64,000 nt of DNA from assembly GCA_031362805.1 (NCBI GenBank), contig JANLTG010000053.1, forward strand, positions 42,207 to 106,206. The letters are read 5' to 3'. Below, piece by piece: positions 1 through 25,713 of the stretch. The notes under the pieces were generated by a model that saw only the letters and a program-made list of their open reading frames with translations, had not been told where the DNA came from and did not search any database. Source of the stretch: a bacterium. Its GTDB lineage: Bacteria > Verrucomicrobiota > Verrucomicrobiia > Limisphaerales > RI-55. Both the position numbers and the translations under genes were made by a program. Positions within the stretch are counted from its first letter, which is position 1. Every line of letters begins with the position of its first letter.

Positions 1-30
1 GATCAGTATTCAGCTTGCGAACGAACCGCG

Positions 31-1467: not shown

Positions 1468-1514
1468 AAGTGATCAGTTGTCTTAGTTGTTGGTTGGTTG
1501 TTGGAAGGAAAACT

Positions 1515-2636
1515 TCAGAGCGTGAAAGCCGGGAGCTTGACGAGCTTGCCGCCGGCCAGCGCCGACTCATGCGCGCACAGGCCGACGCAGGTCCAGTTGG
1601 CCGACTGCTTCGCGTTCGGAAACGGATCGCGGCCCTCGACCAGCGCCATGGCAAACTCGTTCGCCAGGTGCGGATGGCTGCCGCCGTGTCCACTGCCCTG
1701 CGTGAAGCTCAGGTGTGTCTTCTTGCTCGAATCATAGACGCCCTGGGTCGTGTACTTCGCAATGCTCTTGGGCAGGCGCTTCGCAAAGTCCGGGCACTTC
1801 ACCGGCTTCGGGATCTTCGGCTCGGGCTTCTTCGCCGTGTGAATCACCAACGGCTCGTGCTCGACCAGCGGCCATTCCACCGACTTCTTCGTGCCATACA
1901 CGTCGATGCTCTCGCGATACTGCCGCGCGGTGTCGAACAACGAGCGGATGATGCGCGCACTGACGTCCGTGTTCTGAAACTTGATGTGCGCGGTCTCGAC
2001 GGCGAACGGGCTGCCGTAGCACTTGATCAATTCCGCGCGGATGGTGCCGGAGCCAAAGCAGCTCACATATTCGGCGGACTGGCCGATCAGGCCGGCGACG
2101 GGACCGACGCAATGCGTCGCATACCACATCGGCGGGAGGCCGGGCCAATAGTTCGGCCAGCCGTCCATGTCCTGCTGGTGGCTCGCCTGCACGAACTGCA
2201 ACTTGCCGAGTTCGCCCTTATCCAGAAGCTCCTTCATGAAGAGGTATTCCCGGGCGTAGACCACGGTTTCCATCATCATGTATTTGAGGCCGGTCTTTTG
2301 CGCCAGCTCGACGATCTTCTTGCAGTCGGCGATGTTCGTGGCCATCGGCACGGTGCAGGCCACGTGTTTGCCGGCCTTCAGCGCGGCGATGGACATCCAT
2401 GCATGATCCGGGATCGGCGAGTTGATGTGGACGACGTCCACGGCCGGGTCCTTGAGCAGCGCCTGGAAGTCTTCGTACCGGCGGCTGACCCCGAAGTAAT
2501 CGCCGATGGCGTTGAGCTTCTTCGGGTCGCGCTGGCAGATGGCGTAGCAATCGGTGTGCGGATGTTTCTGCCAGAGGGGGATGAATTCCGCGCCAAATCC
2601 CAAGCCGACGATGGCGACGTTGATCTTCTTGCTCAT
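1515..2636 (-). CDS. Gfo/Idh/MocA family NAD(P)-dependent oxidoreductase
   Basis: N-terminal Rossmann motif INVAIVGLGFGAEF, followed by VVHINSPIPDHAWMSIAALKAGKHVACTVPMA, which is typical of this family. 373 aa. Confidence 0.8.
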   Translation of the reverse strand: MSKKINVAIVGLGFGAEFIPLWQKHPHTDCYAICQRDPKKLNAIGDYFGVSRRYEDFQALLKDPAVDVVHINSPIPDHAWMSIAALKAGKHVACTVPMATNIADCKKIVELAQKTGLKYMMMETVVYAREYLFMKELLDKGELGKLQFVQASHQQDMDGWPNYWPGLPPMWYATHCVGPVAGLIGQSAEYVSCFGSGTIRAELIKCYGSPFAVETAHIKFQNTDVSARIIRSLFDTARQYRESIDVYGTKKSVEWPLVEHEPLVIHTAKKPEPKIPKPVKCPDFAKRLPKSIAKYTTQGVYDSSKKTHLSFTQGSGHGGSHPHLANEFAMALVEGRDPFPNAKQSANWTCVGLCAHESALAGGKLVKLPAFTL

Positions 2637-2905
2637 GACTGGTTGATCGGGCGGCGGCGGTCAGAAAACACAAAGCGTATGCTTGATTGCGACGGCGGCG
2701 ATGGGGCGAATGACATCTTTCGACATACCAACTGTCAAACCCAAAGTTCCCCACCGGCGAACGCCGGTCACCGAATCGGACGCGCCGAATCAGTTGAATT
2801 GCAGAATCGGTTTTCACCGCGCATCACGAACGGCGAGAGAAATTAACAATCTTAGGCTTGAGCGTTTTCATAGCATTAGGTCCACTCGACACTAGCCATC
2901 TCCCT

Positions 2906-5900
2906 ATGAAGACCCGCCTCACTCCGTGGTCAGTCGGTTGTGCAATGACAGCTCTGCTGGCGGCGGCGCTTACGCTGCAACCCGGCGAGGCCGCGACGTT
3001 CACGGTGAGCAACACCAATCAATCCGGCGCCGGGTCGCTGCCCCAAGCGATCCTTGACGCCAACGCCAGCGCCGGCGCGGACTTCATCGCCTTTAACATC
3101 CTGTCCGCCGGGCTGAACATCGCGCCAAATGCCGCCCTGCCGGCCATCACAGAGGCGGTGACCATCGACGGCACCACGCAGCCCAGCTTCGCGGGTTCGC
3201 CGTTGATCGAGATCAGCGGGCAAAGCGCGGGGGCGGGAGTGGACGGCTTCCGGATCTTGTCCGGCGGTTCGGTGATTCGTTCGCTGATTATCAACCGCTT
3301 CCTGGGTGACGGCATTGAACTCACCAACGGAGGCAACAACCTCATCGCCGGGAACTGGATCGGACTGAATAACAACGGCACGTTGGACCAAGGCAACACC
3401 TTCAACGGCATCACGGTCACCAACTCACCCAACAACACCATTGGTGGACTGGCGACCGTCGACCGCAACGTGATCTCCGGCAACAACCAGAACGGGGTGT
3501 TCATCCAAGGCCTCGCGGCGACCGGCAACGCGGTGCTCGGCAATTATATCGGCCTAAACGCGACGGGGGGCGTGGCGGTGGCGAACAGCCTGAGTGGCGT
3601 GCTCATCAATCACGCGCCCGCGAACACCGTTGGCGGCACCGCCGCCGCCGCGCGCAATGTCATCAGCGGCAATTCGCAAAGCGGCGTGCGGATCGAGAAC
3701 ACCAACGCATATGCGAATCTCGTGGCGGGCAATTATCTCGGCACGTCCACCAACGGGATTACGGACCTCGGCAACGGAAACTACGGCGTCCTGCTGTTCA
3801 ATGCGCGGAGCAACACGGTGGGCGGGGTAACCGCCGGTCACCGCAACGTGATCGCTGGAAACAATGTCGCGGGCGTGCGCATCGAAGGGGCCAACGCCAC
3901 CACCAACGCCGTGCGGGGCAACTTTATCGGCACGACGATCACCGGCGCAAGCGCGCTCCCCAACGGCGGCCCCGGCGTCCATGTGCTGACCAGCGCGGCC
4001 GGCAACACGATCGGCGGCGCCGCTGCGGGCGAGGCCAACGTCATCGCCTTCAACAGCGTTGATGGCGTGTGGGTGCAGGCCGGCACGAACAACGCGATCC
4101 GCGCAAATCTCATCCACTCGAACGGCGGCCTCGGCATCGATGTGGACCTCGACGGCGTGCTGGCCAATGACGCGGGCGACACGGACGTCGGCGCCAACCA
4201 GCGGCAGAATCATCCGCTCCTGACTGGCGCGACCAATTCGGCCGGCGGCATCACGATCGCCGGCACGATGAACAGTACGGCAAGCCAGGCGTTCACCGTG
4301 GATTTTTATGCGAGCAGCGTCCCGGACGCCACCGGCAGCGGCGAAGGCGAGTTCTATCTGGGAAACACGGCGGTGAACACGGCCGGGGACGGCAATACGA
4401 CGTTTCAAGTGACGTTGCCCAGCGTGGCGCTCGGGCGCTGGGTCACTGCCACCGCGACGGACGCCAACGGCAACACGTCGGAATTTTCGCCGGCCGTCCG
4501 GGCGGAGAGCACGCTGGTACCCGCGACGTTCACGGTGGTCAACACCAACGACTTTGGAGCGGGTTCGCTGCGCCAGGCGATTATCGACAACAACCTTGCC
4601 GTCAGCAGCGCGAACAACGTGATTCAGTTCGCGATTCCCAATTCAGGGCCGCACGTGATCCGGCCGGCGGCCGCGCTGCCGACGTTCCTTGAAGCTGCGA
4701 CGGTGAATGGCTTCACTCAAAGCGGCGCGGTTTCCAACACGCTGGCCACCGGCAACAGCGCGGTGTGGATGATCCACCTCGACGGCGTCAGTGCGGGCAC
4801 GGGCGCGAACGGCCTGCGCTTCGCCAGCAGCGGCAACGTCGTACGCGGCTTGCAAATCTTCCGCTTTAACTCCGACGGTCTCGAGTTCACGAACAGCCAC
4901 AACAACGTCGTTGTCGGCAACAGCCTCGGCCGATTGGATGAGACGGGCGTCACGTTTGCCAACACCGGGGACGGCGTGCATCTCCTGCAATCCTCGAATA
5001 ACCGCCTGGGCGGCGCGCTGCCGGGTGATCGCAACATCATCGCGGGGAACGGCAGCGACGGCATTGAGATCAACGGCACGAACTCGGTCGCCAATCTGGT
5101 GCTCGGCAATCACATCGGCACGGATGGCGGCGGCACGGTGGATCGCGGCAATCTCCAGAGCGGCATCCTGATCAGCGGCGCGCCGAACAACACGATCGGC
5201 GGCACCGCGGCCGGCGCGGGCAATCTGCTTTCCGGCAACACCCAGGAAGGTCTCGAGATCAACGGGCTGGCGGCCACCAACAACGTCGTGCTCGGCAACC
5301 GGATCGGCACCGAGGTCACCGGGCTGACGGGTCTGGGCAACGCCGGCGCGGGCGTGCTGCTCGCGAACAACTCGCGCTTTAACCTGATCGGCGGGCTCGC
5401 CGCCGGCGCAGGCAACCGCATCGCCTTCAACGGCGGCGACGGCATCAACGTGGCGAACGGCACCAACAACGCCCTCCGCGCGAATCTGATCTGGACGAAC
5501 AGCGCGCTCGGCATCGATCTCGATCCGAACGGGCTCACCGCGAACGACGCAGGCGATATCGACGCGGGCGGCAATCAGTTGCAGAACTTCCCGGTGATCA
5601 CCAACGCCATGCTCAACGCGGGCAGCACCGTGATCCAGGGCACGTTCAACTCGACCGCGAGCACGACCTTCGCCCTCGATTTCTTCCAGAGCGTCTTCCG
5701 CGATGTCGCCACGGTGAACGGCGAGGGCCAGTTCTATCTCGGTTCAGCCAATGTGGTCACTGACGGCAGCGGCAATGCGACCTTCGACGTAAATCTACCG
5801 ACGACGGCGACGGGCGGCCGGTGGATCACGGCGACGGCGACCGATCCGAACGGCAATTCATCCGAGTTCTCGGGGGCGTTCACCGCGACGTCGCTGCTGC

Positions 5901-8900
5901 CGGGGCAGCCGTTTCTGGTGACCAACACCAATGACGCCGGGCCGGGCTCGCTGCGGCAGGCCATCCTCGAAAATAACCTCACTTTCAACGGCGCGCCGAA
6001 CACGCTCAACTTCGCAATCACGAGCGCGGAACCGCATGTGATCACGCCGGCGACCGTGCTGCCGACGATCACGGCGGCGGTGATTGTGAACGGCTACAGC
6101 CAGGCGGGCGCCTCAGCCAACACGCTGGCCACCGGCAACAACGCAGTGCTCAAGATCCGCATTGATGGCAATGCCGCGTTTTTCAACGGCCTGCGCGTCG
6201 CGGCGGCGGGGACGGTGGTGCGCGGCTTGAGCTTCACGCGGTTCAGCAATCCGATGTTGCAACTGGACGCCCCCGGTTTCGCCAGCGTCGAGGGTTGCTT
6301 CTTCGGGCTCGATACCGACGGGGTGACGAGCTTCAGCCCCGCGAGTGAAGGTGTGAACGTGAACAACTCGCCGGGCAACGCGATTGGCGGCAGCGCGCCC
6401 GCCCAACGCAATGTCTTCGGCGGCCTGAGCACCGCGATCGCACTGGCCAGCAACGGCGCGGTGAGCAACACCGTGACCGGAAACTACATCGGCACGGACC
6501 GCCATGGCACCGGCGGCTCCGGCAACCTGCGCGGCATCACGATTAACGGCGGCCGCACGAACAGCATCGGCGGCACGACCGCCGCACTACGCAACGTGAT
6601 TTCGAGCAACCGCTTCTTTGGCCTCCAGATCATCGGCACAGGTTCCGCAGGCAATCGCGTCGTCGGCAATTATCTCGGCTTGAACGCGGCGGGCACCGGG
6701 CCGATGGGCAACGGCACGCACGGCATCGACATCAGTTCCAGCACGGCTTTCGGCAACGTGATCGGCGGGATCGCCGCCGGCGAAGCCAACGTCATCGCCC
6801 ACAGCGGGCAGAACGGCCTGAACGTCAGCAGCGGCACGAACAACACCCTGCGCGGCAACTCGATTTACAACAGTGGTTACCTGGGGATCGACTTGGGCGG
6901 TTTCGGCCTCGTCACCTTTAATGATGCTGGCGATGCCGACACCGGCGCCAACCAGTTGCAGAATTTTCCGGTGGTCACCGGCGGTCAGGGCACGCTCTCA
7001 GGCACCACCATCCAAGGCACGCTCAACAGCAAACCGAGCGAAACCTTCCAGCTCGATTTCTATTCGAACCCCGCGACTGAAGGCGACGGCTACGGCGAAG
7101 GCCGCAAGTATCTCGGCTCGGGCAGCACCACTACCGGCGCAGACAGCAATGCGGTCTTCTCGATCAACGTCGCCGGCGTCATGGACGGCCGGCACGTGAC
7201 CGCGACCGCCACGGATGCGAATGGCAACACGTCGGAGTTCTCGCTGTCGGCCCCGCTGGCGGTGACGTTCGCGCCCACCACGTTCACGGTGGTGAACACG
7301 AACGACGCCGGGCCCGGCTCGCTGCGACAGGCGATCCTCGAAAGCAACTTCAAACCTAGCGGCAGCCGGAACACAATCGCCTTCAACATCACCGGGGCGG
7401 GGCCGCATGTGATCCGGCCGCTCACCCCATTGCCAACCCTGGTCGAGAGCGCGTTGATCGACGGCTACTCGCAGCCGGGCGCGGCGGCGAATACGGCGGC
7501 GATCGGCTTCAATGCGGTGCTGCAAATTGTGCTGGAGCCCGGCACACCGTTCCTTGACGGCTTGACCTTGGATTTCCAGAACAGCGTCCTGCGCGGCCTG
7601 GTGATGACTGAATTCGGCGCTGCCATCACCGTGCGCGGCACAGGTCATGTCATCGAAGGCTGCGTGCTGGGCCTTACTGCCGTGGGCTTGCCCGCACCAA
7701 ACGCCCAAGCGATCAACGGCCTGCCCGGCAGCAGCAACAACGTGATTGGCGGCATCACGCCCGCCGCACGCAACGTCATTGCCGGCCGCAATAGCGCGCA
7801 CGCGATCACCCTGCAAAACACCACCGGCTGGCTGATCCAGGGCAACTTCATCGGCACGGACTTGTCGGGCTTGAATACCGCCGGCAGCCAGGCCGGCGGC
7901 ATCTCCATATCGAGCGGCACGGGCAACGTCGTCGGCGGCACAGCACCCGGTGCCGGCAATGTCATCGGAGGCAACGACAGCGGCGACGGTGTTTCCATTT
8001 ATCTCGGTTTCAGCAACCGGGTGGAAGGCAACTTGATCGGCGTCGGCGCGGACGGTGTCACCATCCTCCGCAATAGTCCCGCCGGCGTGTCGATCGAGAA
8101 CTCCGCCCAGAACGTCGTCGGCGGCAGTTCAGCGGGCGCACGCAACATCATCTCCGGCAATGGCACCGGCGTCTCGTTGGCGTTCTCCGGCACCAGCTCG
8201 AATTATGTCGTCGGCAACTTCATTGGAACCGACCTCACCGGCACGCTGCCCGTCCCGAACTATTACGGCGTGTCGATCAGCGCGGATACCAACTTCATTG
8301 GCGGCGTGCTCGCGGGCGAGGGCAACCGCATCGCTTTTAACCAGGGCGACGGCATCCTGGTCGGTGGGGGCACGGGCAACGCGCTGCGCGGGAACGAAGT
8401 CTTCGCCAACGGAGGAATCGGCATCGGCCTGGGTTTCAGCGTCGTCACTCCGAACGACCCGGGCGATCCGGACGCTGGCGCCAACAACTTGCAGAACTTC
8501 CCGGTGCTCGCGAGCGGCTCCATCAACGTGGCCAGCACCGCGGTCGGCGGCGCGTTGAACAGCACCCCCAGCACCCAATTCACCCTCGATTTCTTTGCGA
8601 ACACCGCGCCCGATCCCGCGGGCAATGGCGAGGGCCAGCAATACCTCGGGGCCACCACCGCCACCACCGACGGCGCGGGCAACGCCGTGTTCAGCGTGAG
8701 CCTGCCCCGGCGCGCGGTCGGACGCTATCTGACCGCGACCGCCACCGATCCCGCGGGCAACACGTCCGAGTTCTCCGCCGCCTTCCGCGCCGCCAGCACG
8801 CAGCCGGGACTTACCTTCACGGTGACCACGGAAGCGGACAGCGGACCGGGCTCCTTACGGCAGGCGATGCTGAATTCTGAAACCAACCACGCGGGCGCCA

Positions 8901-11900
8901 ACAACGTGATCCAGTTCGCGCTCTACGGGCCAGGCCCGCATACGATCGCCCCCACCACTGAACTGCCGCTCCTCCGCGAGGCGGTGACCATCGACGGCTT
9001 CACCCAGTCCGAGGCCAGCGCCAACACGCAGGTCAACACGGACAATGCGGTGCGCAAGATCCGGCTCGACGGCTTCGCCACCGCCGGCGCCTACTTCGAC
9101 GGTTTGAAACTCGCCGCCGGGGGAAGCGTGATTCGCGGGCTGTGGATCAGAAATTATGCCGGCAACGCGATTGAAATCACCAGCTCGGGCAACGTCGTGG
9201 AGGGTTGTTACCTGACCGAGAACAATTCCCCCCTCGTGATCAATTCCGGCGCCGGCAACCGCATCGGCGGCACGACTCCCGCCCAGCGCAACGTGATCGT
9301 GGGCAACGCCACCGTCGGCGTGTACGTCTATTCAACCGCCAGCTCAGGCACGCTGGTGCAGGGCAACTTCATCGGCCTGAATCCCGATGGCATCAGCACG
9401 AGCGCGAATGACATCGGGGTGCAATTCGCCGACTCGCCGCTCAACGTGGTGGGCGGCAGCGAGGCGGCGCGCAATTTCATCGTGGGCAACGCCGCGCAAG
9501 GCGTGCTCATCGACGGCACCGGCTCGGTCAGCAACCGGGTCGAGGGCAACTTCATCGGCGTGCGACCGGACGGCGCGGTGGCGGGCAATGGTGGACCCGG
9601 TATCCTGCTCTCCGGCGGCAGCGACAACGTCATCGGCGCACCGCGGGCGACGCCGCCGGGCCAGCTCTCCCTGCAAGGCATTCCCCCGGCGACCGGCGTG
9701 ATGAATGCCATCGCCGCCAATCTGGGCGCCGGGATCGAGGTCGTCGCGGGCGTGCGGAATTCACTCCGCCGCAATCTGGTGTACAGCAACCGTGATCTCG
9801 CCATCGACCTGGCTGGGGACGGCGTCACCGACAACGACGTGCTCGATGGCGATCCAGGCCCGAACAACTTGCAGAACTTCCCGGTCATCAATTCCGCCAC
9901 CATTGGCGCCGGCAACATCACCCTCATTGGTTCGCTGGCGGCCGCCCCGAACACCAGCTACCAGATCGACATCTACTCGAACGTGAATTGCGATTCGCCG
10001 TCGCTCCACGGCGAAGGGCAATACTGGCGGGGCTCGTTCCACGTGACCACCAGCGGCGCGGGCACGGTGAACTTCAATCAGACCGTGAACCAGCCGGGCA
10101 TTGGTTCATTCATCACCGCGACGGCGACCGATCCGGTGGGCAACACCAGCGAGTTTAGCCGGTGCGTGCTGGGCGACTGCAGTGACAACACGCCCAGGGT
10201 CTTCCTCGTCACGAACACGAATTCCTCCGGACCGGGTTCACTTGCCAACGCCGTCGACCAGGCCAACGCTGGGTGCTCGCCGGCCACCATCAACTTCAAT
10301 ATCGCGGGCGCGGGCGAGAAACGTATCTTCTTGTTCGAACCGCTGATCTTGAGCAGCCGCATCACGATCAACTTCGCGAATCAGGGCGGCGGCGGCGTGA
10401 TAATCGACGGTTCCTCGCTTCCGGCCGGTGATTCAGCGATCAATATCGTCGCAAATTACGTCCTGGTTCAGGGCGCCAATATTCAAAACATTGGCGCTGC
10501 GGTCCAAGTCGGAGCCCCCGCTGCCCCCGTGAGCAATGTTACTTTCACCGGCAACATGGTGAACGTTACGGGACGAGCCGGGATTTTGGCCTACCTCAAC
10601 AGCTCGACGATCACCGCCACCGGCAAAGACATCGCGGGCAACTTCGTGGAACTGGTGAACGGAACTGGAAACACCGTTACCGTCAGCGGGCAGAACGTCG
10701 GTGGCGACCTCTTGAACACCATGGGAAACGGTTCGGTGGCGGTGAACCTCAATGGTAGGTTTTTGATCGAGGGCAGCATAGACAGCCGCGAGGGTGGATC
10801 TCCACCTCTGCCTCCAATCATTTCCAACGCCTCCTGCACGGGGCCCAACACCATTAGTATCACTATGAGTGGCTCCGCCCCGGCCAACTTCCCGGTGACA
10901 CTTACACCTATCTACTTCAACAAGGTCAATCCGAAGTCGGGTATTGCGGGCACCACAGTGGTTGGGAACTCCGACGCTATGGGCGAATATTTATTTAGTT
11001 TGATGGAATCCCCGCCCACCGGGACCGTAGCGGTATCAGGCTTGGTGACGATCGCTGGCAACTCATCCGAAGCCAGCCTCCCCGTCAGTCTGGAAGGGTG
11101 TGCGGTAGATTCGCCTTTCATTGTTCTGCCCTTCGAAAACCATCCCCTCGCCGGCGTGGCCGGCGATCCGATCAGCACGTTTAACGGCGAGCTCTACGAT
11201 ACCCTGCTGCCCGATCTGAACCTCGGCGGGCCGATGCCGCTCCTTTTCCAGCGCTTCTACGGTTCGGCGCTCGGCCGCGCGACGCTCCTCCCGCGCCTCG
11301 GCACGAACTGGACCCACAACTTCGAGGCCACGCTGACCAACAGCGCGACGGCCGTCGGCATCTCGCTGCCGCCGGGCTTGATCCTCGCCTTCACCAACCA
11401 GGCGGGCGTGTTCACGCTGTTGAACCGCGCGGATCTGCCGTTCCAGTTGCGAACCAGCGGCGCCAATTACCTGCTGGCGGACCCGCGCGATCAACGGGTC
11501 TTTACCTTCAACAGCTCCGGCCAGCTCACGCAGATCGCGGACAGCCGCGGCAACGCCCACACGCTGGCCTACGCCGGTGCCCTGCTCTCCTCGGCGACCG
11601 ACGGCCTCGGCCGCACCCTGACGTTCAGCTACTCGGCGGGCGGCTCGCTCACGAACGTCAGTGACGGCACCCGTAACGCCGGCTTTCAACAATCGGGCAA
11701 CCTGCTGGCGGTGTCGCGCACGCCGCTCAACTTGCCAACCACCAACAACTACACGGTGAGCGGTCCCTTCGGTGCGTTGCTGCAATCCAGCCAGCGACCC
11801 GTGGGCAACACGCCGCTCACGCAGTTCTACGCCGGTTCCGCGGTGACGTCACAGGGTGTCGCGAGCAGCCCGCCGTCGACCATTCAATACGTGGGCCCCG

Positions 11901-18462: not shown

Positions 18463-19320
18463 TCACACCTGAATACCAGCGAGGAAAACAGCCAGGCGGC
18501 GATGATGCTCGGTCATGCTGGCATCCATTCCGCACTCAGCAGCCAGTTCGCCAAATGGTTCGCTCCAACTGGACTGAGGCACTGGCATGGACGAGGGCAC
18601 AGAGTGAGTGCCGCGACGACGAAAGGTCGCCGTGATGTTCTCCGCGAGCCGGGTGCGGTCCATCGTTCCTGAATCGAACAGAAGGACCATATCCACCAAA
18701 TCCTTCACGCGCGTATTCGGGCGCCCGGTTCGCGGGAGCGTGTAGGCGTGCAGCTTCTCGGCGAACTGCTCCTCGCGCGATATGGCGGGCAGTTTGGCTC
18801 TTGCGATGCCAGCAAAGCCCAGCCAATCCTGACCTTCAAGAATCTCAAATGGTTCGCGCAGAACATCGCCGGCGCTGACATCGAGGTGAAATCCGGCAAA
18901 TCGCCGGCCCGCCATCTGCGCCTCGACGGGATACCTTGCGCCACCGTAAGGCGCGGCATCCAAATCCATCGTCGGCTCGCCGATGGTGAATTCAAACCCG
19001 TCTTTCAGGTCAACGGCCGCTGCACGTTCGAGCGAGGCACGCACCGCGGCGGCGTTCCACTCCTTGGCGCCATCAGGCAGCTGACGAATGGCCAGGTCAA
19101 CGTCGCGCGTGGTTCGCGCTTTCTGAATGCGAAGCTCCATCGCGTACCCACCCTTGAGCAGCCACGGCGCATCGGGTTCATGGAACAGGCGACACAGCAG
19201 CCGGTCGGATGCCGCCTGACGACGCATCCTTTGGATGTCGCCGCCTTCCCGGCGCACTGCGGCGAGAAGTCGGTCCTCCAAAGCGCGTCGGAGTGCCGAG
19301 GGCGTCTGGTAGCGGCTCAT
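18463..19320 (-). CDS. abiEii: AbiEii/AbiGii-family nucleotidyltransferase toxin (type IV TA / abortive infection)
   Basis: 285 aa. Nucleotidyltransferase motif LKGGYAMELRIQKARTTRDVDL. 4-nt ATGA overlap with the upstream AbiEi-like gene. Confidence 0.8.
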   Translation of the reverse strand: MSRYQTPSALRRALEDRLLAAVRREGGDIQRMRRQAASDRLLCRLFHEPDAPWLLKGGYAMELRIQKARTTRDVDLAIRQLPDGAKEWNAAAVRASLERAAAVDLKDGFEFTIGEPTMDLDAAPYGGARYPVEAQMAGRRFAGFHLDVSAGDVLREPFEILEGQDWLGFAGIARAKLPAISREEQFAEKLHAYTLPRTGRPNTRVKDLVDMVLLFDSGTMDRTRLAENITATFRRRGTHSVPSSMPVPQSSWSEPFGELAAECGMDASMTEHHRRLAVFLAGIQV

Positions 19321-19922
19321 GGGAATAGACTCATGACCAGTTCCCGCCGACCCGCACCTGCCTTGGCCGTCGAAATCTGACTTTCGGTAATCAGCCCGCG
19401 ACGACGAGCTTCTTTGGTGACTTCTCGGAGGTCATTAAGCGCATTGGGGTCGGCTTCCGCCAGATCGCACAGCGCCCGGAGTGGACGACAAACCGAGAGA
19501 CCTCGTAGCTGGGTGACCTCGCCCGGCATTAGCTGCGCGTAGTGCAGTGTCACCGCTTTGGGAAGCCGGCTGTTGCGGCGGAATGTCGGCGGTACGGTCA
19601 GGTGTATCTTTGCCGGGTTGAAATCGCCCAACTCGAACAGACTCAGGGCCGACTGATGCGAAACCGCCGCCGTCGGCTTTTCGCTCCGTCCACGCGACCA
19701 AAGCAGCCACACCATCATCTGCCCATCCTCGGGCGACGGCAGATGCGTCATACGGTAAATGCCGCGCCAGACCCGCGCCCAATTCCCGGCACGCACATGG
19801 TAGGGGTGGGTATTGTCCGCGTAGCCGGCCTCAATGGCCTGCTTCGTGGTGAAATACCCCTGCTGGTCCTGCGCAATGCTCATCAGGGCGGCAAACGGAT
19901 CGTTCTTCTTCGCCATGCACAC
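19317..19922 (-). CDS. abiEi: AbiEi-family antitoxin / transcriptional regulator
   Basis: 201 aa. N-terminal wHTH-like segment QGYFTTKQAIEAGYADNTHPYHVRAGNWARVWRGIYRM, typical of AbiEi. Translationally coupled to the AbiEii gene. Confidence 0.75.
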   Translation of the reverse strand: MCMAKKNDPFAALMSIAQDQQGYFTTKQAIEAGYADNTHPYHVRAGNWARVWRGIYRMTHLPSPEDGQMMVWLLWSRGRSEKPTAAVSHQSALSLFELGDFNPAKIHLTVPPTFRRNSRLPKAVTLHYAQLMPGEVTQLRGLSVCRPLRALCDLAEADPNALNDLREVTKEARRRGLITESQISTAKAGAGRRELVMSLFP

Positions 19923-19926
19923 ATCC

Positions 19927-20307
19927 TCAACTTTTTTGAGGAATTGTGCAAGCCGGCTTTGGCTGAGCGGAATGGCCTTCCAGCGCCTTTGCCTCGGTCA
20001 CGACGATCTCTCGAATGACCGGCTGGTTCTCCGCCAGCGCCGGACCATGCGGATTCGGGATACCCGTAAGCAACGAAAGCTCCATCCGCTGCATCGCCGA
20101 TTCGATGCGTCGCAGCGAGTTTCCATGAAGCGTGACTTCATGCGTGGCGAAAACCATCCGTAGCCGCTGTTCCTTCCCGGCGCTTTTGAGTTCAGCGAAA
20201 ACGAACTGGTCGAACGGCAGCAGCAAGCTTAGTTCAGCCGATACTTCGATTTTGACCGCGCGAACGTTCGGGTCGCTCGCCCAATATTCGGGTGATTTTG
20301 TGCTCAT
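19927..20307 (-). CDS. Hypothetical protein, tightly coupled upstream of abiEi
   Basis: 126-aa ORF that ends 4 nt before the abiEi start. No motif recognised. Its first 74 nt overlap the tail of the relaxase-like remnant, so the start is uncertain. Confidence 0.4.
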   Translation of the reverse strand: MSTKSPEYWASDPNVRAVKIEVSAELSLLLPFDQFVFAELKSAGKEQRLRMVFATHEVTLHGNSLRRIESAMQRMELSLLTGIPNPHGPALAENQPVIREIVVTEAKALEGHSAQPKPACTIPQKS

Positions 20308-21055
20308 GTTTTTGCATTTGTTTCAGGTGAGGACGACGCGCTAGTTTCAGCCGGCAGAACGTGTCGGCGGCGCGTTGGCCAAATCGAAGCATGTAGCCGT
20401 GCAGCCGATCCCAGAGGCGAACGCCACGGCGTAGGACCAGACCGGACGCAAGTTCCATCGCGAGCGGGCGATGACCGGAGCGGGTTACGTTCTCGCGCAA
20501 TTGCTCCTTGTCCGGCGTGTAGATGCGGATGCTACGCCGGCCGCGCGAAATGGTCACATACCATTGCTGCGCGTTCGTCGCCGCCTTGATGGTGGAATCG
20601 GAGAACAGGACGTAATCAACGGTCTTGCCTTGCGAGCCGTAGGACGTGACGGCGTAGCCGGGGAGGAACTCACGGAAGCTCGCATCCAGCACCCGGCAAT
20701 CGGTGAGTTCGACTCCGCCATCCGCACGAACCGACTTCACCGCGACAAGTTCACCATTGGTGACGCGGCCACCAGACTTCAACTTGCGATTGGCTTTGAG
20801 GTGCAAGCGGTCGCCGGAGGCAAACGCAACCTCACGCGCCTGACAGACCGAAATCCGGTGGAGCATCTTGTTCGACACCGTAACGAACCGCCCTCCGACT
20901 TCGACCAACAGCCCCGTCTTGAAAATCCCCGACAGCTTGCCTTTCGCCCCGGCGTCGGCTTCGCGTACTTTTTGGTTGAACACGACGATGGCATCCTGCG
21001 GATAGAATCGCTCGTCTCGCTTTTGCGCGTTGGTGAGGTCCATTCGTTCGAGCAC
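20234..21055 (-). pseudogene. C-terminal remnant of a MobF/TraA-type relaxase-helicase
   Basis: 273-aa ORF containing the helicase C-terminal signature GYAVTSYGSQGKTVDYVLFSDS ... QQWYVTISRGRRSIRIYT. The relaxase and ATPase N-terminal domains are absent from every frame upstream. Confidence 0.55.
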
Positions 21056-21122
21056 CTGAACGGTTGAATCAAGAGCGCCAAGCAGCCCTGGGAAAAGCGG
21101 CGCGGGCTGCCCGGCCGCCGCG

Positions 21123-21215
21123 CACCCCCCTCGGGGGGTGTCCCCTTGTTCAGCTTTGATGGATCTAACGGTTGACTACTCATGTAACACTCCATTCCTT
21201 TCATCGGAGTGTTAC
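21123..21215. promoter_or_regulatory. Two perfect inverted repeats upstream of the relaxase remnant (candidate oriT relic)
   Basis: CACCCCCC-tc-GGGGGGTG at 21123-21140. GTAACACTCC-(12 nt)-GGAGTGTTAC at 21184-21215. Confidence 0.3.
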
Positions 21216-21509
21216 CCCTTTCTCAGGTCATCGGTGTCTCATGATCTGGTCGCTAAGACAAAGAACCAAGCCCCGAGTCAGGTCGAGGCAGCGTCAGTTG
21301 ACGCGCTTGAAGCGAAAAACCATATCTCGAAGACGCAAACAACCGCAGTCCAACCAAAGCGACGAACGACGGTACGCGTATGAACCCGGGAAGCTAAACC
21401 GCCTTTGCTCATGCTTTTGGTTTGAAGCACGAAGCGTCGCACATCCGCACATCAACCTCTCAGCTCTACTATTGAAAGTTCCTGTTGATTCTGCGAGCGT
21501 CTCCCCGGC

Positions 21510-21585
21510 GGGCCTGTAGCTCAATGGTTAGAGCAGAGCACTCATAATGCTTTGGTTCTCGGTTCGAGTCCGGGCAGGCCCACCA
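21510..21585 (+). tRNA. Intact tRNA with CAU anticodon (Met or Ile2/lysidine type), carried by the element
   Basis: GGGCCTG TA GCTC AATGGTTA GAGC A GAGCA CTCATAA TGCTT TGGTT CTCGG TTCGAGT CCGGG CAGGCCC A CCA. This is a 76-nt canonical cloverleaf with an encoded CCA. Confidence 0.9.
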
Positions 21586-21749
21586 TCTAATTCACCGGAT
21601 TCTGGCCTCCCCCTTCGCACTGCGACGAAATCGTCTGCCGTCAGGCAGAAGCTTTCACACGATTGCTTCCATTGCTCCATTTCAAATATGTAGCAGCTAC
21701 ACCAAAGAAGTCGCATAAGTCGCATTCTCGGCTCGTGAAACTTGATTAC

Positions 21750-22004
21750 ATGAGCGCGACAACAATTTCCGAATGTCAGACCCTTGACGTGAAAAGCAGC
21801 GCAACCGAACTCGGCGTTTGCGAAGAAACAGTGCGGCGCCTCGTTCGCCGGAAGGTGCTGCGGAAGCTGCCTGGGCTCCGGCGCATCCTGATTCTCAGGA
21901 CTGAGCTCAAAAGATACTTGGGAGCTGGAGAAGTAGAGTTGGCTACCAAAGCACTCTCAAAAAACGGCCCAGAAACGGCCCAGAAGAAAACAATGTTTGC
22001 GTAA
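21750..22004 (+). CDS. xis: Excisionase-like helix-turn-helix DNA-binding protein
   Basis: ATG at 21750 within track ORF 21663..22004. The segment SSATELGVCEETVRRLVRRKVLRKLPGLRRILILRTELKRYL resembles the excisionase/MerR-type HTH_17 family. It lies at the element end opposite the integrase. Confidence 0.6.
   Translation: MSATTISECQTLDVKSSATELGVCEETVRRLVRRKVLRKLPGLRRILILRTELKRYLGAGEVELATKALSKNGPETAQKKTMFA
21966..21989 (+). repeat. Arm-type repeat doublet CGGCCCAGAAaCGGCCCAGAAGAA (right arm)
   Basis: 23 of 24 nt identical to 16936-16959, in the same orientation, 56 bp inside the attR core. Confidence 0.55.
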
Positions 22005-22044
22005 GCAGCACATCGTTAAAATGTTAAGGTCTTTCAACCACGCC

Positions 22045-22053
22045 AATATGAGT
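22045..22053. repeat. attR core (AATATGAGT)
   Basis: Exact 9-bp copy of 16797-16805. Confidence 0.8.
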
Positions 22054-22083
22054 CGTCTGCTCTAACCGCTGAGCTATGGGCCC
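22045..22083 (-). tRNA. 5' half of the split tRNA(CAU) gene (acceptor to anticodon loop), attR side
   Basis: The minus strand reads GGGCCCA TA GCTC AGCGGTTA GAGC A GACGA CTCATAT T. The downstream sequence (TGGCGTGGTTGAAAGACC) cannot pair with the anticodon stem, and there is no T arm. Confidence 0.85.
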
Positions 22084-22197: not shown

Positions 22198-22959
22198 GTG
22201 TCCAGCCACGCCTGGGAAGCGCGGACAACGGCGTTTGACCTTGCCGCGTTCCCGTGGAAATCATTCCGCGTGTCGTCACCTGCCATTCTCGAAGTCCAGC
22301 GGCTTGCTCGCACCTACCAAACCGCTGGCGAGCCGCTGACGGTGCTCCATGAGATCAGCTTTACCCTCGCCGCCGGCGCCGCGTGCGCAATCGTCGGTCC
22401 GAGCGGCAGCGGCAAGACCACGCTGCTTGGTCTTTGCGCCGGGCTCGACACACCCTCCACCGGCACCGTCCGGGTGAGTGGCATTGATCTCGGCCAACTC
22501 GACGAAGACGGCCGCGCCCAAGTTCGCAACGAGCAGGTCGGTTTCGTATTTCAAAACTTTCAGCTGCTGCCCACGCTGACTGCCTTGGAGAATGTCATGG
22601 TGCCGATGGAACTGCGTGGAACCCGCAACGTCGCGCCCGAGGCGAAAGAGCTTTTGAAACTCGTCGGGCTGGGCGAACGACTGCACCATTATCCCGTGCA
22701 GCTCTCGGGGGGCGAACAGCAGCGGGTCGCACTGGCCCGCGCCTTCATCAACCGCCCCAAGCTGCTCTTCGCCGATGAACCCACCGGGAATCTCGACACC
22801 GAGACCGGCCATCAAATCATCGAGGCGCTGTTCCAACTGAATCGCGAACGCGGCACCACGCTCGTGCTCGTGACGCATGACCAGGAGCTCGCGGCCCGCG
22901 CGGGCCGCGTGATCCGGTTGAAGGGTGGCGCCATGATCAGCGATTCCGGCCAGCCATGA
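22198..22959 (+). CDS. ABC transporter ATP-binding protein (LolD/YbbA-like)
   Basis: Walker [12 protein letters not shown], signature [14 protein letters not shown], Walker [13 protein letters not shown]. The start is uncertain: GTG at 22198, or an in-frame GTG at 22270. Confidence 0.85.
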
Positions 22960-25547
22960 TCGCGTTGCCCCGACATCTCTTCGCGCGCTGGACGTGGCTG
23001 ATGGCCTGGCGGGACAGCCGCGCGAGCCGCCGCAAGCTGCTCTTGTTCTCCTCGTCGATCGTGCTCGGAATTGCGGCGCTGGTCGCCATCGGTTCCTTCG
23101 GCACCAGCCTCGAGCAGGCGATCAACGATCAGTCAAAAGCGCTGCTCGGCGCCGATCTCGTGATCGATACACGGGTCAAGCCCGAGGGCGAACGCGCGCA
23201 GTTCCTCAAATCCGTCCCCGGCGAATCGTCGACCGAGATCAACTTCGCCTCGATGATTTACTTCCCGCGCACGGAAGGCACGCGGCTCGTCCAGATTCGC
23301 GCCATCGAAGGCGGCTTCCCATTCTACGGTGAGCTGGAATCCCTTCCCAAGGCGGCCAGTCAGGACTTCAAGCAAGCCGGCGGTGCGTTGGTGGATGAAG
23401 CGTTGTTGCTGCAGTTCGGTGTCGAGGTCGGTGACGACATCCGCATCGGCAAACTCGTGACCAAGGTCGCCGGCAAGCTGCTCAAGGTCCCCGGCGAATC
23501 GATGGCCTTCGCGACGATCGCGCCACGCGTTTACATTCGAGCGAGCGACCTGGCCAACACTGAGTTGATGAAGGATGCCAGCCTGGCGCGTTACCGAACT
23601 TTCTTCCGCCTGCCGGAAAACACCGATGCCGAACTACTCGTGACGGACCTGCGTCCGCAGATCGACAAGTTCCAGTTCGGCGTGGACACCGTCGCCGAGC
23701 GCCAGCGCGATCTCGGCCGCGCCATGGACAACCTCTACAACTTCTTGAACCTCGTCGGCTTCGTGGCCCTCTTGCTCGGCGGTGTCGGCGTGGCGAGTGC
23801 GATCCATGTGCATGTGAAGGGCAAGCTCGCTTCAGTCGCGGTGTTGCGCTGCCTCGGCTGTTCATCGGCTCAGACGTTTGCCATTTACCTGGCGCAAGGC
23901 ATGGCGCTCGGCCTGGTCGGCGCGCTGTTCGGGTCCGCGCTCGGGATCATCGTGCAGTTGATTTTGCCGCACGTCGTCGGTGATTTCATCCCGATCGATG
24001 TCGAGTTTCACCTGGCGTGGCTGTCGATCCTTTCGGCGGCGGGCACCGGCTTCGGCGCGTGCGTGTTGTTCGCGCTGATTCCCCTGCTCGGCGTTCGCCG
24101 CGTGTCGCCGCTGGCGGCGATTCGTTCGTCGTTCGAAAGCAAACGCGGCTTCGATCCCCTGCTCTTGCTTGTCTTCGGCCTGATCGGCGCCTTCATCGTG
24201 GCGTTTGCGCTGGCGCACACCCGCCGCTGGCACGAAGGCATTGGTTTCTCCGTCGGCTGGGCCATGGCGTTTGGCGCGCTGTGGACCGTCGCGCAAACGA
24301 TTTCCTTTCTGGCTCGCCGGCTCACCCCGAGCTGGCTGCCATTCGTGTGGCGCCAGGGACTCTCGAATCTTCACCGGCCGAACAACCGCACCACCTTGCT
24401 CCTGCTCTCGGTGGGCTTGGGCACGTTTCTGATCCTCACCTTGCACCTCGTTCAAAACAGCTTGTTGCAAGGAATCGTCAGCGCGAAGACCGAGGGACAG
24501 GCCAACGCCATCTTGTTCGACATCCAGGCCGATCAGCGCGATGGCGTCGCCGCCGTGCTCAAGGAGCAAGGACTGCCGCTGCTCGACGAGGCGCCGATCG
24601 TCACCATGCGCATCGAGTCGATCAAAGGTAAGTCCGTCGAGGAGCTGGAAACCAACCGCGTTGAGCGCGCGGCACCGGCGCAACCCGGCGGTCCCCGCGA
24701 ACGCCGGGGCGGCCCGCCCCGCTGGGTATTACGCCGGGAGTTCCGAACGACGTTCGGCGACAAGCTCCGCGACTCGGAGAAACTGGTCGCCGGCGAATTG
24801 GTACCCGCCGTGACGCCGGACATGGATGTCATCCCGATCTCAGTCGAGGACGGGCTGGCGAAACAAATGAAGGTCGGCCTCGGCGACGAGATTGTCTGGG
24901 ATGTGCAAGGCGTACCTGTGAAAACCAAAGTCGCCAGCCTCCGCTCGGTAGACTGGCGCCGTGTGCAGCCCAATTTCTTCGTCGTGTTCCCGACCGGCAT
25001 ACTGGAGGAAGCGCCGTCCTTCTACATCATGGTCACGCGCGTGGCCGACGCTGCGCAATCCGCCGCCCTCCAGCGCGAGGTGGTCAAGCAATTCCCCAAC
25101 GTGTCAGCCATCGACCTGACGCTGATCGTCGGCACGCTGGACGCGATCGTCTCGAAGATCGCGTTCGTGGTGCGTTTCATGGCGTTGTTCACCGTGCTTA
25201 CCGGGCTCCTCGTGCTGGCGGGCGCCATTCTGACCGGTCGCTTTCAACGGATGCAGGAAAGCGTGCTGCTGAGAACGCTCGGCGCATCACGTCGGCAGAT
25301 CCAGCAGATCCTGCTGGCTGAGTATCTCGCGCTCGGCGGACTCGCCGCGTTGACGGGGATCGGCCTCTCGGTTGGGGCGACCTGGGCGCTGGCCAAGTTC
25401 ATCTTCAAGACCGACTTCAATCCAGAACCCCTGACGCTGGTCGTCGCTTTCGTGATCGTTTGTCTACTGACGACGATCACTGGGATGCTGGCCTCGCGCG
25501 GTGTCGGCAATCATCCGCCGTTGGAGGTCTTGCGGCGGGAGGTTTGA
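22956..25547 (+). CDS. FtsX/MacB-type ABC transporter permease (YbbP-like, duplicated FtsX domains)
   Basis: 863 aa, with an ATGA overlap onto the ATPase gene. Two blocks of four hydrophobic helices are separated by large soluble domains. Confidence 0.8.
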   Translation: MIALPRHLFARWTWLMAWRDSRASRRKLLLFSSSIVLGIAALVAIGSFGTSLEQAINDQSKALLGADLVIDTRVKPEGERAQFLKSVPGESSTEINFASMIYFPRTEGTRLVQIRAIEGGFPFYGELESLPKAASQDFKQAGGALVDEALLLQFGVEVGDDIRIGKLVTKVAGKLLKVPGESMAFATIAPRVYIRASDLANTELMKDASLARYRTFFRLPENTDAELLVTDLRPQIDKFQFGVDTVAERQRDLGRAMDNLYNFLNLVGFVALLLGGVGVASAIHVHVKGKLASVAVLRCLGCSSAQTFAIYLAQGMALGLVGALFGSALGIIVQLILPHVVGDFIPIDVEFHLAWLSILSAAGTGFGACVLFALIPLLGVRRVSPLAAIRSSFESKRGFDPLLLLVFGLIGAFIVAFALAHTRRWHEGIGFSVGWAMAFGALWTVAQTISFLARRLTPSWLPFVWRQGLSNLHRPNNRTTLLLLSVGLGTFLILTLHLVQNSLLQGIVSAKTEGQANAILFDIQADQRDGVAAVLKEQGLPLLDEAPIVTMRIESIKGKSVEELETNRVERAAPAQPGGPRERRGGPPRWVLRREFRTTFGDKLRDSEKLVAGELVPAVTPDMDVIPISVEDGLAKQMKVGLGDEIVWDVQGVPVKTKVASLRSVDWRRVQPNFFVVFPTGILEEAPSFYIMVTRVADAAQSAALQREVVKQFPNVSAIDLTLIVGTLDAIVSKIAFVVRFMALFTVLTGLLVLAGAILTGRFQRMQESVLLRTLGASRRQIQQILLAEYLALGGLAALTGIGLSVGATWALAKFIFKTDFNPEPLTLVVAFVIVCLLTTITGMLASRGVGNHPPLEVLRREV

Positions 25548-25656
25548 GCTGTTTCAAATCGTCCTCGTACTTGTCCGCGATTCCTCGGTCAGCGAATAAT
25601 TGCTTTCGATTACGAGCCCGAGGACGACGACGACGACGATCAAACGGTACAGAAAA

Positions 25657-25682
25657 CCGGCGGCTGCTTTCGCAACCGCCGG
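25657..25682 (-). terminator. Intrinsic terminator hairpin (minus-strand reading; possibly bidirectional)
   Basis: On the minus strand: CCGGCGG-U-UGC-GAAA-GCA-G-CCGCCGG, followed by UUUUCUGUACCGUUUG. The stem is GC-rich, the loop is a GNRA tetraloop, and a U run follows. Confidence 0.5.
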
Positions 25683-25713
25683 ATACATCTTGATTTGAGC
25701 GGGACGCCCAGTC

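Follow-up and report, generated by a model that had tools for sequence, protein, structure and literature searches.

A 64,000-nucleotide stretch of a Verrucomicrobiota genome (assembly GCA_031362805.1, contig JANLTG010000053.1), referred to here in its full length as the window, contains a 5,239-bp genetic island (16806-22044) that splits a host tRNA gene and carries a complete tRNA gene with the same CAU anticodon. Both tRNAs appear to be tRNA-Ile2, and the island belongs to a family of mobile elements in which the arrangement recurs. The cargo tRNA is probably part of the integration module of these elements, together with the excisionase-like gene (xis), the attachment site attP and the integrase gene (int), and would replace the split host gene in viable integrants. 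To date the mechanism has been demonstrated in mycobacterial and related phages alone; here its carrier would be a conjugative element.

The island is delimited by the attachment (att) core AATATGAGT, which is found exactly twice in the window, compared with 0.05 occurrences expected by chance (Table 1). When the two host halves are joined they give a 76-nt cloverleaf tRNA(CAU). The 5' half is identical at the same chromosomal site in the related locus L015, and in L171. The reconstructed host tRNA and an uninterrupted metagenome tRNA, L098, share 73 aligned positions, all of which are equal save position 38. Since L098 carries the gene uninterrupted, the two window halves represent one real gene that was split by the insertion. 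Among the matches listed, the metagenome scan provided no syntenic empty site: L098 is a 1-kb contig with unrelated flanks, and the scan pattern also matched many unrelated bacteria. Position 38 is T in both window cores (ACTCATATT on the tRNA strand) and A (ACTCATAAT) in L098, in the L015 attR and in all other cargo and host tRNA-Ile2 genes seen, so that precise excision would rebuild a tRNA with U38. The same change in both cores suggests either that attP brought it in within the overlap or that a cycle of recombination made the two copies alike.

Neither junction of the window forms a tRNA that can be recognized. ARAGORN calls none at attL or attR, Rfam finds none at E<=10, and the attR hybrid could form only 2 of 7 acceptor pairs; the junction hybrids were therefore rejected as working tRNAs. 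In relatives, such hybrids score 25-32 bits against the Rfam tRNA model or are undetectable, compared with 70-74 bits for the cargo tRNAs. Joining of the halves in trans, as with the split tRNAs of Nanoarchaeum, was also considered and rejected: by eye, no complementarity is seen between the 3' flank of the 5' half (GGCGTGGTTGAAAGACC...) and the 5' flank of the 3' half (...CCCCCGTCTCCGCA). Bacteria are also not known to possess the splicing endonuclease.

The cargo tRNA was described in an earlier note, written from the letters of this DNA, as an intact 76-nt tRNA(CAU) on the plus strand, about 460 bp inside attR and opposite in orientation to the split gene. That description holds. ARAGORN calls a single tRNA in the window, at this position and with anticodon CAT; it scores 71.2 bits against the Rfam tRNA model (E=1.4e-13), and 459 bp separate its 3' end from the attR core. 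The resemblance between cargo tRNA and split gene is also as the note had it, with a GGGCC acceptor start, a GCTC/GAGC D stem, a G27:U43 pair and a TGGTY variable loop in both, and with the cargo anticodon loop ACTCATAAT equal to the core ACTCATATT at 8 of 9 positions. Overall, the cargo tRNA and the reconstructed host tRNA have 62 of 76 positions in common. The window cargo tRNA differs from the L016 copy at one position, a U50-G64 wobble, and that of L015, the closest relative, is the same as the window's from position 7 on. The first base of the L015 contig (GCA_031401075.1, JANNRB010000018.1) is nucleotide 7 of its cargo tRNA, and the chromosomal site is the window's own; that the assembly stops at the tRNA suggests a region that is repeated or that varies between strains, for instance because the population has several elements or tRNA copies. 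Upstream of the cargo tRNA, alignment of 7 other islands reveals TTGAAA-N17-AATCAT or AAGCAT, and the window has a putative promoter-like counterpart (Table 1). Sub-threshold matches to RF04354 (Plastid-ycf2 5'UTR) occur antisense to every tRNA examined, including window 21510-21583 on the minus strand, with 28-46 bits against a gathering score of 65.7 bits; they look like an artefact of a model that resembles antisense tRNA, rather than a feature of the locus.

A CAU anticodon can belong to initiator or elongator tRNA-Met as well as to tRNA-Ile2, and published discriminators separate them. Silva et al. 2006 (PMC1635315) report that a tRNA with G3 or A3 and with C70 or T70 is neither tRNA-Met nor tRNA-fMet, which points to tRNA-Ile(CAT), and that C4:G69 and C5:G68, which are determinants for E. 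coli TilS, are typical of tRNA-Ile(CAT). Initiators are marked by A11:T24, and the initiator criteria taken from the same paper are a C1xA72 mismatch, A11:U24 and G29-31:C39-41. Cargo and host tRNA both have G1:C72, G3:C70, C4:G69, C5:G68 and a D stem with C11:G24. Their anticodon stems are GAGCA/UGCUU (cargo) and GACGA/UCGUU (host), with GGG/CCC in neither. In BLAST searches of all 5,426 complete E. coli genomes, the best match of each tRNA, in every genome, is a 76-nt gene with a CAT anticodon (ileX type) that PGAP annotates as tRNA-Ile, at 76-85% identity. Elongator and initiator Met identities can thus be set aside on the discriminators of Silva et al. and the E. coli best matches, and both genes are best classified as lysidine-type tRNA-Ile2(CAU). 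The earlier note had leaned the same way, and the initiator features that it reported missing, the C1:A72 mismatch and the three G:C pairs, are indeed absent. A cargo tRNA of another isotype than the split gene would have spoken against replacement; on comparison, both are tRNA-Ile2.

The arrangement is not confined to the window. Our relatives are a limited sample, and the lineage counts below refer to sampled lineages. On the xis side, an intact plus-strand tRNA(CAU) is followed 130-620 bp downstream by xis, then by an arm repeat, the core and the minus-strand 5' half of the host tRNA-Ile2. This order is found in every tRNA-Ile2-targeting locus that reaches far enough (window, L016/17, L018, L029-34, L035-44, L170 and L171-173). 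The chromosomal flanks are of at least six kinds (ABC transporter; response regulator and sigma-70; LacI; cellulase and UvrD; sigma-70 and glycosyltransferase; Band_7) and differ between lineages, which indicates separate host lineages. All 7 sampled lineages that target tRNA-Ile2 have a cargo tRNA, and its isotype is always that of the target. The 3 lineages at other tRNAs lack one: over the flanks that were fetched, no cargo tRNA lies beside homologous xis genes at intact tRNA-Arg(TCG) (L022, L024, L026) or tRNA-Arg(ACG) (L174-176), nor beside a homologous integrase at intact tRNA-Gln(TTG) (L004). Between islands, the cargo tRNA has a mean identity of 97.8% (96-100%), compared with 67% over the 150 bp on its upstream side and 56% over the 150 bp on its downstream side. 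Only a few variants of it are seen, with 1-3 differences, namely a one-base indel in the D loop, U-G, U-A or C-G at 50:64, and G or A at position 57, all of which preserve structure. This pattern indicates purifying selection on the cargo tRNA. A survey of related islands for the same disrupt-and-replace arrangement, as the earlier note had proposed, thus finds it throughout the Ile2-targeting lineages, and supports the view that it is a conserved and selected family trait, not an accident of the window island.

Relatives also preserve an intermediate state. L171 has a xis-side arm with a complete tRNA 3' half in addition to the cargo tRNA, and its target is rebuilt at the junction: the minus-strand junction tRNA is intact and scores 66.2 bits, compared with 73 bits for the cargo copy in the same locus. 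This hybrid tRNA has an A28xC42 mismatch, which illustrates that chimeric repair at an anticodon-loop crossover may be fragile where hosts differ. L172, with the order xis, 3' half, core, arm repeats and an integrase 70% identical to the window's, is the unintegrated attP configuration. This form proves that both ends belong to one element, with tRNA, xis, attP and int as one compact module. Elsewhere the restoring half has decayed. Over the 37 nt after the anticodon loop, matches number 37 in L171, 25 in L016, 24 in L170, 20 in L018 and L029, 17 in L035, 15 in L015 and 13 in the window, and the possible acceptor-stem pairs fall from 7 to 2 across the series. The decayed halves are colinear with the intact half, and their distance from the xis stop codon is the same. 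The simplest reading of this comparison is that both devices were present first, and that selection on the restoring half was later relaxed, the cargo tRNA being enough, so that this half decayed. Since L171 keeps both, the cargo tRNA would predate the destruction for which it now compensates.

These observations can be combined in a mechanism. The tyrosine integrase of the family recombines inside the anticodon loop of the host tRNA-Ile2 gene. With a shared core of only 9 bp in the window, integration leaves the host gene in two nonfunctional pieces, one at attL and one at attR. AUA occurs in the window's host genes (5 of 5,696 codons), so that AUA decoding is needed; the complete and independently transcribed cargo tRNA would supply it after host TilS has made lysidine, and integrants would be viable. 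The family ancestor would have had both a restoring 3' half and a cargo tRNA, with the restoring half lost in several lineages, and the remnant in the window would now carry the only intact tRNA-Ile2 of the locus. A crossover in the anticodon loop also means that repair by a restoring half gives anticodon and acceptor stems of mixed origin. A complete cargo gene would avoid such stems and would permit both insertion in either orientation (as in L011, below) and decay of the restoring half.

A retention function, as the earlier note framed it, does not follow from this arrangement. Site-specific excision across the 9-bp core would leave a rebuilt host gene behind; the cargo tRNA therefore lets the host survive integration and puts no penalty on clean loss. 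The host would depend on the element only where a deletion, and not excision, takes the tRNA away. Such a narrower dependence fits the window, which has lost the conjugation apparatus and kept a perfect tRNA with its upstream region. A broader role is possible but tentative: a whole tRNA-Ile2 could be a host-independent repair kit with which the family can use a conserved gene, probably essential and present in one copy, as its target in divergent Verrucomicrobiota, and in a degenerate element the foreign tRNA could become the permanent host tRNA-Ile2.

Several points weigh against replacement of the host gene by the cargo tRNA. The isotype call leans on published discriminators and similarity. 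The tRNA inventory covers the 64-kb window, and a further tRNA-Ile2 or a tRNA-Ile(UAU) may lie elsewhere in the genome. The cargo tRNA of L171 coexists with a rebuilt target, so compensation is not its sole or original selective value. The window's -10 element is GAGCGT with one extra base, compared with AATCAT or AAGCAT in the family, and a consensus promoter scan upstream of the window cargo tRNA called no promoter.

Some of these points suit a reading in which the cargo tRNA is a dispensable passenger, a hitchhiker such as a captured chromosomal gene or a landing pad for further elements, in hosts that have other tRNA-Ile2 copies or another route to AUA decoding. Host copy number beyond the window leaves room for more copies, and some genomes have many: E. 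coli O157:H7 has 9 tRNA-Ile(CAT) genes (Silva et al. 2006, PMC1635315). L171 keeps its cargo tRNA with the target rebuilt, and in L007 a native gene of cargo type was itself hit by a family member (see below), which makes the cargo sequence usable as attB. A passenger would not be expected, however, to stay about 98% conserved with structure-preserving changes only, between flanks of 56-67% identity, or to occur in 7/7 lineages that target tRNA-Ile2 and 0/3 that target other tRNAs with its isotype always matched to the target, or to be kept while the window element lost most of its genes. Moreover, the 293 tRNA-Ile(CAT) genes profiled by Silva et al. came from 234 genomes, which makes one gene per genome typical. 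We therefore consider a passenger unlikely. Codon supplementation, in which the cargo tRNA would help to translate element genes that are richer in AUA, in the manner of lambdoid ileZ-type tRNAs, with the match to the target secondary, is very unlikely. AUA frequency is indeed higher in the island (3.4 per 1000 codons, 5/1483) than in flanking host genes (0.88 per 1000, 5/5696; Fisher p=0.011), but the counts are tiny, with five AUA codons on each side. The cargo tRNA sits by xis and attP in the integration module, away from highly expressed genes, family relatives at tRNA-Arg or tRNA-Gln lack any cargo tRNA, and supplementation leaves the freedom of the restoring half to decay unexplained. 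Lastly, that the family mechanism is true while the window copy is silent behind a decayed promoter, with AUA decoded from elsewhere, accords with a -10 element that departs from the family consensus at 4/6 positions and has a 1-nt insertion, with the empty promoter scan and with the decaying state of the island, but is very unlikely for a perfect tRNA (71.2 bits, one difference from L016, identical to L015 from position 7) whose GAGCGT retains two bases of the hexamer, A at position 2 and T at position 6, in a phylum whose promoter rules are poorly known.

Replacement of the host gene by the cargo tRNA also has a close precedent. Guerrero-Bustamante and Hatfull (2024, mBio; PMC10865867) described actinobacteriophages that integrate in a tRNA gene through an 8-17-bp core without rebuilding it, and showed experimentally that such phages survive only through their own cognate tRNA, which they termed tRNA-dependent lysogeny. 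Gordonia phages OneUp and Mollymur use tRNA-Ile2-CAT with 9-10-bp cores, and Fionnbharth uses tRNA-Lys-TTT. The window shares with these phages a tyrosine integrase with arm-type sites, an attB in the anticodon loop, a short core (9 bp here), no rebuilt tRNA at attL or attR, and a complete element-borne tRNA whose isotype matches, with tRNA-Ile2-CAT among the targets; close relatives that rebuild the target without a tRNA are a further likeness to the family. The differences are equally clear. The carrier here is conjugative or mobilizable (TrwC, T4 coupling protein, ParA), lacks phage genes and resides in Verrucomicrobiota; its cargo tRNA lies in the integration module, immediately upstream of xis; the L171/L172 intermediate and the graded decay series have not been reported for phages; and the tRNA requirement is experimental there and inferred here. 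Judged by its sequence, the window island appears to have every feature of tRNA-dependent lysogeny save being a phage, and by analogy it would work like such systems without being a strict member. No description of a disrupt-and-replace arrangement in conjugative elements was found in the searchable literature.

Other systems share parts of the arrangement. Mobile elements with tRNA-Ile2-type genes that need host TilS also occur among E. coli prophages, whose tRNA-Ile(CAU) genes probably supplement rare-codon decoding. These are not known to be linked to destruction of host ileX, and it is in the window family that the isotype is that of the integration target. Canonical anticodon-loop islands (Islander, PMC4383910) have in common with the window a crossover in the anticodon loop flanked by a symmetric anticodon stem, a displaced tRNA fragment at one end and an integrase gene beside the att site. 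They carry the 3' part of the tRNA in attP and regenerate the gene, whereas the window has a match of 13/37 nt there and a separate full-length gene in opposite orientation; an intact tRNA at one junction, as in restoring islands, is present in L171 (66.2 bits) and absent from the window. Lactobacillus johnsonii prophage Lj965, as cited in PMC10865867, leaves its tRNA target unrestored and encodes the cognate tRNA. According to that citation it is a bioinformatic case of a disrupted tRNA target with a cognate tRNA outside Actinobacteria, and it differs in being a single Firmicutes prophage without a surveyed family.

The relatives themselves appear to be verrucomicrobial integrative conjugative or mobilizable elements. 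There are at least 171 integrase homologues, mostly from Verrucomicrobiota metagenome-assembled genomes. A TrwC relaxase-helicase of 936-981 aa comes after the integrase in L002, L007, L008 and L011, and L002 additionally has ParA and a TrwB/TraG-type T4 coupling protein; a relaxase and a coupling protein in relatives imply that the family is conjugative or mobilizable. On the int side, the 3' half of tRNA-Ile2 abuts the integrase gene in L002, L007, L008, L009 and L010, and no intact tRNA(CAU) lies within 10 kb on this side of L002 and L007-L010. No phage structural genes were seen in the family loci, which have TrwC, T4 coupling protein, ParA and large helicase-like genes instead. A phage origin was rejected: a scan of viral contigs for the cargo anticodon arm returned only two phage tRNA arrays of ~172 kb that are unrelated to the element. 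These arrays (L168 and L169, from IMG/VR) have a tRNA(CAU) with the same 28-nt anticodon arm as the cargo, and L169 additionally encodes tRNA-Ile(UAU).

Individual relatives vary in informative ways. In L011 (9873-10000, compared with L008 9866-10000) it is the 5' half of the tRNA that adjoins the int-side arm, and the core runs the other way round with respect to this arm (ATTATGAG, compared with TCTCATAAT in L008); this is best read as an element inserted in reverse with respect to the tRNA. In L005 it is int itself that is flipped against the arm repeats and the 3' half. The displaced 3' half of L007 (7870-7915, minus strand) is of cargo type, with 98% identity to the 3' half of the window cargo tRNA. 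A nested insertion was rejected as its explanation, because the flank (1-7846) belongs to the chromosome, as its sulfate-assimilation genes (CysN-like, PAPS reductase, sulfite reductase) show, and has no xis. The cargo-type tRNA-Ile2 of L007 is thus native to the chromosome and was hit by a family member; this native gene hints at the origin of the cargo tRNA. Directly downstream of its displaced 3' half, L002 has a second tRNA-like piece (9738-9830, minus strand) with GGTTAGAGCA, a 7-bp hairpin ACCCCGAAGGCATTCGGGGT, an intact T arm and GGGCCCACCA, a degenerate D arm and a non-canonical anticodon arm. ARAGORN makes no call on this piece, which may be a relic of some earlier event or else an element that resembles a tRNA.

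The gene content of the window island (Table 1) is that of a deletion remnant, as its truncated relaxase and helicase-like ends indicate. Full-size TrwC in L002 (14082-17027) matches PF08751 at 5.7e-82, and in intact relatives a large helicase-like gene precedes the cargo tRNA. The window has lost the relaxase N-terminus, the ParA and T4 coupling protein genes of the relatives, and everything up to the last ~55 helicase-like codons. The deletion, of ~710 TrwC codons and the rest of the conjugation region, ended ~315 bp upstream of the cargo tRNA. An internal deletion thus took the conjugation genes of the window element but left the tRNA and the sequence upstream of it in place, and what remains is int, AbiE, a relaxase stub, the tRNA and xis. 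With only the last ~270 aa of TrwC and no T4 coupling protein, this copy cannot transfer by itself. The AbiE module that the earlier note had recognized is confirmed by Pfam matches to an AbiEi/AbiEii pair. It is a recurrent cargo of the family in varying positions and orientations (L002 12088-13754, L038 447-2026, window 18463-19922).

Table 1. Features of the island and its junctions in the window, in order of position.
Feature	Position	Strand	Basis and remarks
Host tRNA-Ile2(CAU) 3' half, displaced, anticodon loop to CCA, includes attL core	16760..16805	-	Reconstruction; L098 match
attL core, 9 bp, AATATGAGT (ACTCATATT on tRNA strand)	16797..16805		Two-copy count
Tyrosine integrase (int), divergent	16880..18406	+	Maximal open reading frame 508 aa; database protein P0001 = 501 aa; weak PF00589
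Arm-type repeat, int side, GGCCCAGAA x2, putative integrase-binding	16931..16959	+	29-nt direct repeat, 93% identical to 21960-21988
AbiEii toxin	18463..19320	-	PF08843, 6.9e-29
AbiEi antitoxin	19317..19922	-	PF13338, 8.2e-08
Conserved small backbone open reading frame	19927..20382	-	49-57% identity to relaxase-adjacent open reading frames of L002, L007, L008, L011
TrwC relaxase-helicase 3' remnant, residues 711-981 of 981 aa	20234..21088	-	77% identity to L002 14082-17027
Deletion junction	21089..21194		tblastn limits of both remnants against full-size L002, L018, L029, L171
Helicase-like gene, C-terminal remnant (last ~55 codons)	21195..21383	+	Matches L016 1-345, L018 residues 769-802
Promoter-like element, putative, upstream of cargo tRNA	21472..21500	+	TTGAAA, 17-nt spacer, GAGCGT
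Cargo tRNA-Ile2(CAU), intact, 76 nt, CCA encoded	21510..21585	+	ARAGORN, Rfam, isotype, family identity
Excisionase-like HTH_17 protein (xis)	21750..22004	+	PF12728, 4e-07
Arm-type repeat, xis side, overlaps 3' end of xis, putative	21960..21988	+	Repeat comparison
Decayed remnant of restoring tRNA 3' half	22005..22044	-	Between xis stop and core; colinear with intact half of L171/L172
Host tRNA-Ile2(CAU) 5' half, includes attR core 22045-22053	22045..22083	-	Same half in L015, L171

PF00589 matches occur in 18/19 members of the integrase family, and the window copy, searched by itself, matches weakly; residues R324/325, K354, H423, R426, H448 and Y458 are invariant. Searches of PDB sequences with the integrase, both as a single sequence and as a 19-member profile, gave no matches, and the integrase call therefore relies on the family-wide Pfam matches and the invariant catalytic residues. 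There are 260 xis homologues, many of which are labelled as excisionase in their source. Repeats equivalent to those of the window are kept beside int and beside xis in relatives (27-29 bp, 93-100% identity), and the 29-nt repeats are probably arm-type integrase-binding sites. They fall in coding sequence, namely the xis C-terminus (...GPETAQKK) and the N-terminal extension of int (...GPEPAQKN). The first ~30 residues of xis resemble the translated region upstream of int in L002 (10261-10356; 52-66% identity over 29-32 aa), which suggests a segment duplicated on both arms. A 13-bp palindrome, TGTAGCAGCTACA (GTGTGGCAGGCACAC in others), lies ~50 bp upstream of the xis start in the window (21689-21701) and is also present in L015, L016, L018 and L035; it could be an operator for xis regulation. 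Outside the island, a single open reading frame of 3,974 aa, rich in repeated segments and with RHS/YD repeats in its C-terminal part, lies just to its left (2858-14782, plus strand), followed by a small TSP3/RHS-repeat protein (14797-15408); the product of the former is predicted to be a giant secreted or toxin-like protein. A sub-threshold Rfam match to c4-a1b1 (25641-25692, minus strand; 23.4 bits, E=0.13), 3' of the stop of an ABC permease gene (22956-25547), is probably due to chance.

This family carries the mechanism described in 2024 for actinobacteriophages over to conjugative elements, and to a phylum that is distant and for the most part uncultured. This suggests that destroying a tRNA target while bringing a tRNA of one's own is a general strategy of integrating elements and no peculiarity of phages. 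The family also gives an order of events that the phage work could not settle; the comparison of relatives supports a sequence in which the tRNA was gained first and the restoring core was lost later. There are practical implications for genome annotation. Island finders that need a regenerated tRNA together with a displaced fragment will miss or mis-delimit such elements, and CAU tRNAs on islands are liable to mis-annotation as tRNA-Met. In genomes such as that of the window, the sole functional tRNA-Ile2 may be foreign. If this is true, a degenerate element would have led to horizontal replacement, driven by a mobile element, of an essential component of translation.

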